IMG/VR virus record: IMGVR_UViG_2734482536_000008
Length of the DNA stretch: 4,472 bases
Strand: one strand, 5' to 3'
From: a virus
Lineage: Duplodnaviria > Heunggongvirae > Uroviricota > Caudoviricetes
Under the pieces are notes generated by a model. It was not told where the DNA came from. It worked only from the letters and a program-made list of their open reading frames with translations, and did no database searches. Shown piece by piece: positions 26 through 4,472 of the stretch. Position 1 is the stretch's first letter, and every line of letters begins with the position of its first letter. Made by a program: the position numbers and the translations under genes.

Positions 26-378
26 TTAAAAAAAGAACAAATGGTAGTGTCCGCTATTGCCAGTACACCTCAATTGCTCTGCGGCTTCGCTCAGAGCTGG
101 CGTATGTTCCCGGCCTACTGATTCACACAGGTAATCAACGAAACCGGACACCAGTTTTCGTTCGCGAGGCGTGATCGCCCCACCGACCGGAGTCCAGTAA
201 TCGAAACCCAGTTGCAGGAGTTTGAAAAAACGCTTGTGGAATGCGTAGTTACACACACGCTTAAAGTCTGCGTGTATCCACTCACCTATTTTGATTTGAT
301 GCAGAAAATCGCAACTCTCCGGCGTCGCCGGGAGAAGTAATCCGGAAGAGGTTTGTTTGACCAGTTGTATATGTGCCA
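26..378 (-). CDS. Hypothetical prophage protein, 117 aa from the ATG at 376-378 (ORF track extends it to a TTG at 419-421)
   Basis: Open frame with no stops. The ATG at 376-378 is preceded by GGAGAAAG about 7 nt upstream on the minus strand. Reads protein-like (MAHIQLVKQTSSG...), but I recognise no family with confidence. The stop lies 25 nt from the window edge. Confidence 0.45.
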
Positions 379-417
379 TCGGCTTTCTCCGGTGGCACGG
401 TGTTACACAGCAGGAGT

Positions 418-3022: not shown

Positions 3023-3684
3023 CTACTTAACAACCCTCGAATGGCTAACATTCGGACGCCAGCTCTCCCAGTTAAAATTCACCCAGCGCCCGNNNNNNNN
3101 NNNNNNNNNNNNNNNNNNNNNNNNNNNNNNNNNNNNNNNNNNNNNNNNNNNNNNNNNNNNNNNNNNNNNNNNNNNNNNNNNNNNNNNNNNNNNNNNNNNN
3201 NNNNNNNNNNNNNNNNNNNNNNNNNNNNNNNNNNNNNNNNNNNNNNNNNNNNNNNNNNNNNNNNNNNNNNNNNNNNNNNNNNNNNNNNNNNNNNNNNNNN
3301 NNNNNNNNNNNNNNNNNNNNNGATAGCTGCCGCTAAGTGATTCTTCCCGGTACCAGGTTTTCCGCTGAACGCAAAATTTGTACACCCGGTCATCAGTTCA
3401 TCGGCGATGGATTTCGCCTGGCTTAACGCGTATCGCTGGCCGTCGTTCTGCACCTGGTAATTCGCAAACGAGCATTTACGGTGCAACGGCTGGATGCCTG
3501 AGCGATTCAGAATTTTTTCCACCCGCAACTGGCGATTCAGGCGGTTGATCTCCTCGCTACGTTTCTGGCCTTCAGCAAGTTGCCACTCGCGCCACTCCGC
3601 TACCGTTCTGAATGGGGCGGTTACATGTGGCGGGGTCAGTCGGCGGATGCGTTCCAGAACGCCGCCTGTCGCAATATTTTTCAT
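3023..3684 (-). CDS. dnaC: DnaC-like replicative helicase loader (phage P-function analogue, AAA+ ATPase), interrupted by the N run
   Basis: N-terminal 120 aa align closely to E. coli DnaC, including NRSGIQPLH, CSF-NYQV and the Walker A motif FSGKPGTGKNHLAAAI. The C-terminal tail after the gap (GRWVNFNWESWRPNVSHSRVVK) matches the DnaC C-terminus (LWVIFNWDSYRSRVTGKEY). ATG at 3682-3684, stop TAG at 3023-3025. The two halves are in different frames across a 229-nt N run, so the true length is unknown. Confidence 0.85.
3093..3321. other. Run of 229 N (assembly gap or masked sequence) inside the DnaC-like gene
   Basis: Directly visible. Its length is not a multiple of 3, which explains the frame change between the two gene halves. 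Confidence 0.95.
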
Positions 3685-3690
3685 GGTCCG

Positions 3691-4367
3691 TTACCCCCTG
3701 AAGCCTGGCGGGATCGCACTGTCCGGCAACGAGACGGTGTTAACCTGTCGGAGCAACGTCTCAGGCCGAACACCTTTCGGCGCGAACAGGCCCTGGTATT
3801 CATTGGCGATGCTGTGTCGAATCACCTGCTCAGGTGTAAAACCCTGCTGACGGAATTTTTCCAGTTCCCGTATCGCCCCGTTAGCGCCCTGCTCCGTTCG
3901 AATCGGTTTTCGCAATGCCTGTCTGAACCGGACCCACTCATGCCAGAGTGTTTCCGGCAACCAATCGGGCAGCTCAATAGCCTCCGGCTCGAATTTTTTA
4001 GACGCTCGTTTTTGGCGAGGGGGAGATCAGTATTTAGATCTTCCTCTTCCTCTTCCTCTGGTAACGCTTTTTGATCCGTTTGTGTAACGCTGGCAGCGTT
4101 ACCTTTTCGTTTCAGTTCGCGTATTTTTGTTACTCGCTCGTTTGTAACCGCCCGTTTTTTTTAGAGCTTTTTCCGTTATGACGTTCAAAGTTAGGTAGAG
4201 AAAGCCCTCCGTCATTTTCGACCAGCCATCCAACCTGAATTAACGCATCAGCAAAACCAGACATAAAAGTGATGCGATCTATTGCACTTTTTGTAACGCC
4301 GCGAGCGTTACAATCTGCATTACCGTCTATCATTTGTTGATCCGCCCATGCCCAGAAGCGAATAACC
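3691..4367 (-). pseudogene. Phage replication-initiator/primosomal gene with DnaT-like C-terminal domain, split across three frames
   Basis: The C-terminal segment (3691..about 4026) ends NTVSLPDSAIPPGFRG and contains KFEPEAIELPDWLPE, matching the E. coli DnaT C-terminal domain (NTVSEPDSQIPPGFRG; PDWQPD). Its stop is 6 nt before the DnaC-like start, like chromosomal dnaT-dnaC. Upstream, coding continues without stops in a second frame (about 4160..3996, KKRAVTNERVTKIRELKRKGNAASVTQTDQKALPEEEEEEDLNTDLPLAKNERLK) and a third (4367..4130, ending HNGKSSKKNGRLQTSE stop). The frames change at an A8 tract (plus T8, 4155-4162) and near an A6 tract (plus 3994-3999). The 5' end is either the ATG at 4331-4333 or lies beyond the IS at 4368. 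Confidence 0.55.
4039..4059. repeat. Hexanucleotide tandem repeat (TCTTCC/GAGGAA, about 3.5 units) encoding a Glu6 linker on the minus strand
   Basis: Plus tcttcctcttcctcttcctct; on the minus strand GAG GAA GAG GAA GAG GAA in the middle frame of the replication gene. Confidence 0.5.
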
Positions 4368-4472
4368 TGAGGTAGCCTGAGTTTAACGGACACTCCTTCC
4401 TGAAATAGAATGGCATCAGAAGGAGCTAATAATGAGCAGAAAAACCCAACGTTACTCTAAAGAGTTCAAAGC
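4368..4472 (+). mobile_element. IS3-family insertion sequence, left end (IS600-like), continuing past the window edge
   Basis: A terminal TGAGGTAGCC... at 4368 with GGACAC at IR positions 21-26, the same position as in the IS3 left inverted repeat as I recall it. The orfA ATG follows 64 bp after the IR start with AGGAG 8 nt upstream, a typical IS3-family layout. Only one end is in the window, so the boundary is inferred. Confidence 0.7.
4432..4472 (+). CDS. IS3-family transposase OrfA, N-terminal 13 codons (partial, runs off the window)
   Basis: ATGAGCAGAAAAACCCAACGTTACTCTAAAGAGTTCAAAGC translates MSRKTQRYSKEFK, which I recognise as the start of IS600/IS3-family OrfA (HTH protein). Confidence 0.75.
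   Translation, partial: MSRKTQRYSKEFK

Follow-up and report, generated by a model that had tools for sequence, protein, structure and literature searches.

Does a phage gene whose coding sense steps through three reading frames represent a replication initiator that is recoded during expression, an intact gene that was misread during assembly, or a gene that has been inactivated for good? This question is raised by a stretch of 4,472 nucleotides of prophage DNA (IMG/VR record IMGVR_UViG_2734482536_000008; hereafter the window), in which an initial annotation, made from the letters alone, noticed a split initiator gene on the minus strand at positions 3691-4367. Translation bears out that coding sense runs through three minus-strand frames, and the landmarks named at the time, a T8 run on the plus strand at 4155-4162, a T6 run at 3994-3999 and a minus-strand ATG at 4331-4333, are accurately placed. 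Addition of one A at each of the two proposed switch points indeed yields a single ORF, of 214 amino acids as compared to the claimed 215 or so. Our comparisons lead to a different picture of how the gene was broken: it is very probably a genuine, lineage-fixed pseudogene of the replication initiator of a Rac-like lambdoid prophage in Shigella sonnei, carrying three inactivating lesions.

The identity of the gene is apparent from its intact relatives. A megablast search with positions 3600-4472 as the query against 5,426 complete Escherichia coli genomes resulted in coverage of at least 80% of the query in 681 of them, and the matching regions are annotated as 'hypothetical protein / phage replication initiator YdaU family protein', followed by 'ydaV: ATP-binding protein'. 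In two E. coli loci the intact initiator was found as a single 789-nt ORF encoding 262 amino acids, flanked by a YdaT-family gene on one side and the dnaC-like ydaV on the other, and uninterrupted initiator ORFs are present in E. coli prophages as well as in isolated phages. Comparison with such orthologues, which had been suggested as a check, assigns all three segments to this one 262-aa gene, of which the window retains codons 35-262 up to the stop codon TAA at 3691-3693. With the lesions set aside, an alignment of about 1,050 bases between the window and its nearest intact E. coli counterpart contains a single mismatch, and the three-frame coding sense can therefore not be put down to chance. 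This sole base substitution is synonymous, and with so little divergence the decay of the initiator is recent. Isolated phages, e.g. vB_EcoS-666R9, contain the initiator at 95% identity, annotated as 'DNA replication protein O' and situated beside a 'DnaC-like protein', while the orthologous gene in the record for phage Rac is labelled 'ydaU'. The original call of a replication initiator is supported by the intact orthologue, whose entire length of 262 residues (1-262) matches PHROG 2509, 'replication initiation protein' (E=1.2e-89). The pseudogene in the window belongs to this lambdoid/Rac-type replication initiator family (PHROG 2509; NCBI 'YdaU family'), whose members are YdaU-like or 'protein O'-like.

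The same holds for the DnaT-like domain that had been recognized at the end of the protein. The C-terminal 93 residues of the intact protein (170-262) align with the C-terminal domain of DnaT in a phmmer search of the PDB (2RU8, E=9.5e-5; 9ZBT, E=3.2e-4). This part is encoded in the third frame by the C-terminal segment of the window gene (3691-4017, minus strand), which ends with ...PDSAIPPGFRG. The likeness to the E. coli primosomal protein DnaT comprises about 90 residues including the terminal motif NTVS-PDS-IPPGFRG, whereas the N-terminal part of the initiator is unrelated to DnaT, and a scan of NCBIfam retrieved nothing but a sub-threshold match of the tail, at 16 bits versus the 201-bit cut-off of the DnaT equivalog. 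Judged from these alignments, the gene does not encode DnaT itself but a phage initiator whose tail resembles that of DnaT. No Pfam family was retrieved with either the intact orthologue or the window fragments, even at E<=10, and the N-terminal DUF1376 domain that is present in YdaU from strain K-12 was absent in the scan of the intact orthologue. YdaU of the K-12 type (DUF1376) shares only its C-terminal 124 amino acids with the initiator, at 81% identity, and the N-terminal two-thirds are unrelated, showing that initiators of this kind are modular. Work in the literature on YdaU concerns Rac racR/ydaS/ydaT, and we found no functional study of the initiator there.

The gene neighborhood is that of the Rac-type ydaU-ydaV module of E. 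coli, an analogue of lambdoid O/P (intact initiator orthologues: WP_038340159.1 / WP_001737256.1 and protein O of phage vB_EcoS-666R9), with the order repressor, cro-like gene, ydaT, initiator, dnaC-like ydaV and DUF977. The initiator lies downstream of the cro/cII-like genes (ydaS/ydaT) and directly upstream of the gene for the DnaC-like/P-like loader, and the DnaT-like C-terminal domain is likewise common to the module and the window copy, which differs in being broken by IS600, an A8 tract and a 10-bp deletion. The helicase-loader gene ydaV (3023-3684, minus strand) starts 6 nt past the initiator stop and is interrupted by a run of N in the window; in three S. sonnei loci (L004-L006) it encodes 248 amino acids with matches to IstB_IS21/Bac_DnaA. 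On the other side, the YdaT-family gene encodes 101 amino acids in S. sonnei loci (L004, 4273-4578) versus 140 in E. coli (L001, 898-1320), and may thus be truncated, too, in the S. sonnei prophage.

The largest of the three lesions is an insertion element, whose connection with the initiator was absent from the first reading. Homology to intact initiator genes ends at position 4368, where the left end of IS600, a member of the IS3 family, begins (4368-4472, plus strand, cut by the end of the window). It starts with TGAGGTAGCC... and contains the ATG of orfA at 4432. L004 contains the full element, which shares 99.5-99.8% identity with copies labelled 'IS3-like element IS600 family transposase', has the termini TGAGGT...ACCTCA and carries ORFs with HTH_Tnp_1 and rve domains. 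Its left flank ends with ...GGGAAGGT and its right flank starts with GGTTATTCGC, while the intact gene contains a single GGT; the insertion has thus produced a 3-bp target-site duplication (GGT on the gene strand), one copy of which is located at 4365-4367 on the minus strand. With identity, termini, target duplication and ORFs all in agreement, the element at 4368 is an IS600 insertion. It splits the initiator after codon 34 and separates the start codon and the first 34 codons from the remainder of the gene; the missing 5' 103 nt are kept on the far side of the full IS600 in complete S. sonnei assemblies (L004, 4656-4781). The ATG at 4331-4333, which had been taken as the start of the protein, is consequently an internal codon, Met47, the true 5' end having been displaced by IS600.

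The first frameshift lesion is an A8 homopolymer (4155-4162, minus strand), behind which the shifted frame reaches a stop at TAA 4130-4132. The middle segment of the gene (4025-4154, minus strand; native codons of about 104-151) continues in the second frame only and does not have an ATG, GTG or TTG start of its own. Every complete E. coli genome that contains this stretch (n=162) has an A6 run at this position and none of the 162 matches at 99% identity or more; A8 was not found among the 5,426 complete E. coli genomes. The tract reads A8 in six independent S. sonnei assemblies (L004-L009). Compared with the E. coli orthologues, A8 is an expansion of A6 by two nucleotides and not the undercall that had been considered likely. 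Rare S. sonnei contigs (L010-L012) feature an in-frame A9 tract, encoding one extra lysine, together with an uninterrupted 5' end; these contigs end at an insertion element, before the site of the 10-bp deletion described below. The existence of this allele makes a path from A6 via A9 to A8 plausible, and the initial proposal of adding one A would then match the likely last step. The rare allele has been hit by IS600 in an independent event, after codon 136 instead of within codon 35 (L010, 1755-2161; L011, 1561-1967; L012, 1431-1868).

For the second frameshift, the A6 run at 3994-3999 (minus strand) or its vicinity had originally been proposed, a candidate that is ruled out by alignment to intact orthologues: the run represents native AAA AAA codons (Lys-Lys) and is identical in the window and in intact genes. 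The alignments place the true lesion at 4018-4024 (minus strand), some 20-30 nt upstream and outside the interval 3994-4013 proposed before. Here, a single copy of the 7-bp direct repeat TCCCCCT is kept and the 10 bp TCCCCCTAAA are lost, such that the intact sequence TGATC[TCCCCCTAAA]TCCCCCTCGCC (lost unit in brackets) has become TGATCTCCCCCTCGCC in the window by removal of one unit between two TCCCCCT repeats. The undeleted form of the site reads TCCCCCTAAATCCCCCT. The deletion of the window is present in none of the 551 complete E. coli genomes containing this stretch (5,426 genomes searched), and 549 of the 551, being longer by 10 bp, match at 80-90% identity. Both indels amount to -1 nt modulo 3, which explains why coding sense steps through three frames. 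Three short-read contigs (L013-L015) begin exactly inside the TCCCCCT repeat and start too late to show the state of the deletion; such a position suggests a branch in the assembly graph, perhaps caused by two alleles or copies in those genomes. A further repeat nearby, a GAGGAA hexanucleotide array detected by TRF and encoding a run of glutamates (4039-4059, minus strand), consists of three units in the window, in L004, L005 and L008 and in E. coli, and of six in the S. sonnei chromosomes L006, L007 and L009 (around 6345-6380). As the array is in frame and polymorphic in length, it does not count as a lesion.

Further insertions mark the surroundings. An IS600 end lies at either border of the window, the right one at 1-72 and the left one at 4368-4472, both having the same orientation, so that a 4.3-kb prophage fragment is enclosed by direct copies of IS600. 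The Rac-like prophage from which it comes has been heavily invaded by insertion elements. The left of these copies truncates a DUF1367 ORF (26-379, minus strand). Also on the minus strand reside a hok/sok-type toxin-antitoxin locus (955-1280), with a match to Rfam sok (RF01794) at 1105-1280 (117 bits) and a HOK_GEF-family ORF at 955-1167, and a gene for epoxyqueuosine reductase QueH (DUF208/PF02677; 1338-2024), the exact protein product of which is found in S. sonnei Ss046 and many Enterobacteriaceae. In L008 (contig of GCA_001248565.1, 3176-6264), a ydaU-ydaV pair of the K-12 type precedes the junction of IS600 and pseudogene and the downstream module is a different one (DUF1627). This arrangement could stem from IS600-mediated recombination between prophages or could be a scaffolding chimera.

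Some features of the sequence might be taken to indicate that the locus has retained a residual role. The initiator gene contains the palindromes GTAACGCTG-n-CAGCGTTAC (4084-4102) and TTGTAACGC-n5-GCGTTACAA (4291-4313) and extra GTAAC half-sites in the regions 4060-4150 and 4291-4313, and the hexamer CGTTAC occurs nine times in the window versus 1.4 times expected. Comparable to the situation in lambda (O/ori), these palindromes and half-sites are putative binding sites of the initiator, or parts of an origin, that lie in its own gene. Taken together with the poly-A tract, it is conceivable that the Lys-Lys codons, for which alleles of A6, A7, A8 and A9 are known, form a slippage hot spot, at which A8 might give rise to traces of a frame-restored transcript or protein by slippage of the polymerase or by -1 slippage of the ribosome, and that, separately, GTAACGC...GCGTTAC may serve as an origin fired in trans by the initiator of a related superinfecting phage. 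We consider the combination of both very unlikely.

A more demanding proposal is that recoding restores the initiator, either through two successive programmed -1 frameshifts at A-AAA-AAC and A-AAA-AAU or through transcriptional slippage at A8. Programmed frameshifting had been listed before as the least likely explanation, and we regard restoration by any kind of recoding as extremely improbable. Two slippery heptamers are present, A-AAA-AAC at 4155-4162 and A-AAA-AAU at 3993-3999, and both are in X-XXY-YYZ register, as had been stated. However, this register is a by-product: where native AAA AAA codons meet a lesion of -1 nt modulo 3, A-AAA-AAN in the shifted frame arises automatically and is no evidence of recoding. 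Transcriptional slippage on A/T runs is used in some virulence genes of Shigella, and the genus thereby provides a precedent for the second variant. The start codon and 34 codons of the gene have been lost to IS600. A predicted hairpin of moderate stability (-30.6 kcal/mol, z=-2.55 versus shuffles) lies 3 nt downstream of the A6 run (3924-3990, minus strand), where the coding region of the DnaT-like domain begins; intact genes contain this hairpin just as well, and the 3-nt spacer is short. Downstream of the first site, no RNA structure is predicted (z=+1.13). As the A6 run is separated by some 20 nt from the actual second lesion, which is upstream of it, a slip at this run would scramble 8-9 residues, swapping LNPPRQKRAS for LAKNERL. 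A two-frame architecture is not conserved: both E. coli prophages and isolated phages have the orthologous gene as one uninterrupted ORF of 789 nt with A6, which means that no frameshift signal has been conserved. The window sites resemble those for programmed -1 frameshifting in dnaX and in orfAB of the IS3 family (A-AAA-AAG type) in that a -1 shift on A-rich X-XXY-YYZ heptamers would compensate each lesion and restore the frame, yet they differ from them in being unconserved, in the missing start codon, in the absence of a stimulatory element at the first site and in the position of the second lesion elsewhere.

Could the gene be intact in reality and its homopolymers have been miscalled in a low-quality draft? 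The initial annotation judged such undercalls likely in view of the nearby run of N (3093-3321), which is located 370 bp away, and one of the lesions does fall into a homopolymer. The N run comprises 229 bases and stands for 314 bp of ydaV (L004, 7073-7386), such that its length is not the true length; the window sequence on either side of it shows 100% identity to L004 and L005. The truncated product of the broken gene corresponds to an 87-aa ORF that leads from a GTG inside the IS600 end into the gene and on to the stop that results from the shift at A8. Exactly this product is encoded on 492 contigs in 481 blocks, 14 of which have contigs of more than 1 Mb. The 492 contigs include chromosomes of more than 4.8 Mb and are all named S. 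sonnei (e.g. FORC11_0721), and a 67-aa version with an ATG start is present on 73 further contigs. These are independent assemblies, complete chromosomes among them. All six independent loci compared (L004-L009) combine the junction with IS600, the A8 tract and the loss of the 10 bp. The second lesion, moreover, is a 10-bp deletion and not a homopolymer call, and IS600 alone already breaks the gene. In exact-sequence look-ups, the IS600-disrupted backbone carried A8 on 565 contigs and A7 on three, and A7 may itself be a homopolymer miscall. With the same product on 492 contigs and all lesions in six loci, assembly error is excluded, and the lesions are real and fixed in common S. sonnei lineages; an intact gene behind faulty base calls would be an exceedingly improbable explanation. 

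Hardly credible, finally, is a phase-variable contingency switch in which the tract toggles the initiator on and off within a population: four lengths do occur in related genomes (A6 in E. coli, A9 in rare S. sonnei, A8 in the majority, A7 on three contigs), but in the IS600-disrupted backbone the 565 contigs with A8 stand against those three with A7, and A6, A9 and A10 were not found in the look-ups (with three or six GAGGAA units for A6 and A9), which argues against switching at the population level, the A9 allele is disrupted by IS600 as well, at another site, and toggling would remain without phenotype as the gene is independently dead via IS600 and the 10-bp deletion.

We therefore return to the pseudogene with three lesions, for which the following history can be proposed. 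In the ancestral protein of 262 amino acids, an N-terminal domain specific to the phage was followed by an acidic linker and the DnaT-like C-terminal domain, the latter presumably recruiting the helicase of the host and YdaV, the DnaC-like product of the neighboring gene. Three independent mutations destroyed this gene. Transposition of IS600 into codon 35 with duplication of GGT has cut off promoter, ribosome-binding site, start codon and 34 codons. Replication slippage probably turned the Lys-Lys tract into A8, either by addition of two nucleotides to the A6 of E. coli or, more likely, by loss of one from an A9 intermediate that rare S. sonnei isolates still carry, and a slipped-strand deletion would have removed one 10-bp unit between the two direct TCCCCCT repeats. 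The lesions, their positions, their occurrence in many independent assemblies and the intact state of the orthologues are demonstrated by the sequences, whereas the order of events, the slippage mechanism and the biochemical role of the domains are inferred. The earlier suggestion of real slipped-strand frameshifts in a cryptic prophage was correct insofar as the inactivating mutations are real; of the two frameshifts, though, one lies in a homopolymer and the other is a direct-repeat deletion of 10 bp, and the insertion of IS600 was missed. As far as can be deduced from its sequence, the window copy does not give rise to a functional product, and the prophage appears as a cryptic, IS-riddled remnant that is unable to initiate its own replication.

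Decay of this kind is well documented for the host. For S. sonnei, 50% of the pseudogenes have been attributed to insertion sequences and a further 12% carry an IS together with other inactivating mutations, and IS600 is one of five elements that have expanded in Shigella (Hawkey et al., 2020, PMC7373316). The initiator falls into the class of 12% with an IS plus other mutations and does not differ in substance from the IS- and indel-driven pseudogenization described there, although the parts of that article considered here do not mention the locus itself. The gene is an ordinary, already understood kind of pseudogene and a textbook case of multi-hit decay in Shigella by IS insertion and slippage indels. 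Its significance extends little beyond annotation, where 'hypothetical' or 'bacteriophage' proteins of S. sonnei such as FORC11_0720/0721 turn out to be pieces of one dead initiator gene. The automatic X-XXY-YYZ register of frameshift lesions inside Lys-Lys codons cautions against inferring recoding from such heptamers, and the IS600 site, the length of the A tract, the 10-bp deletion and the GAGGAA copy number could serve as lineage markers.
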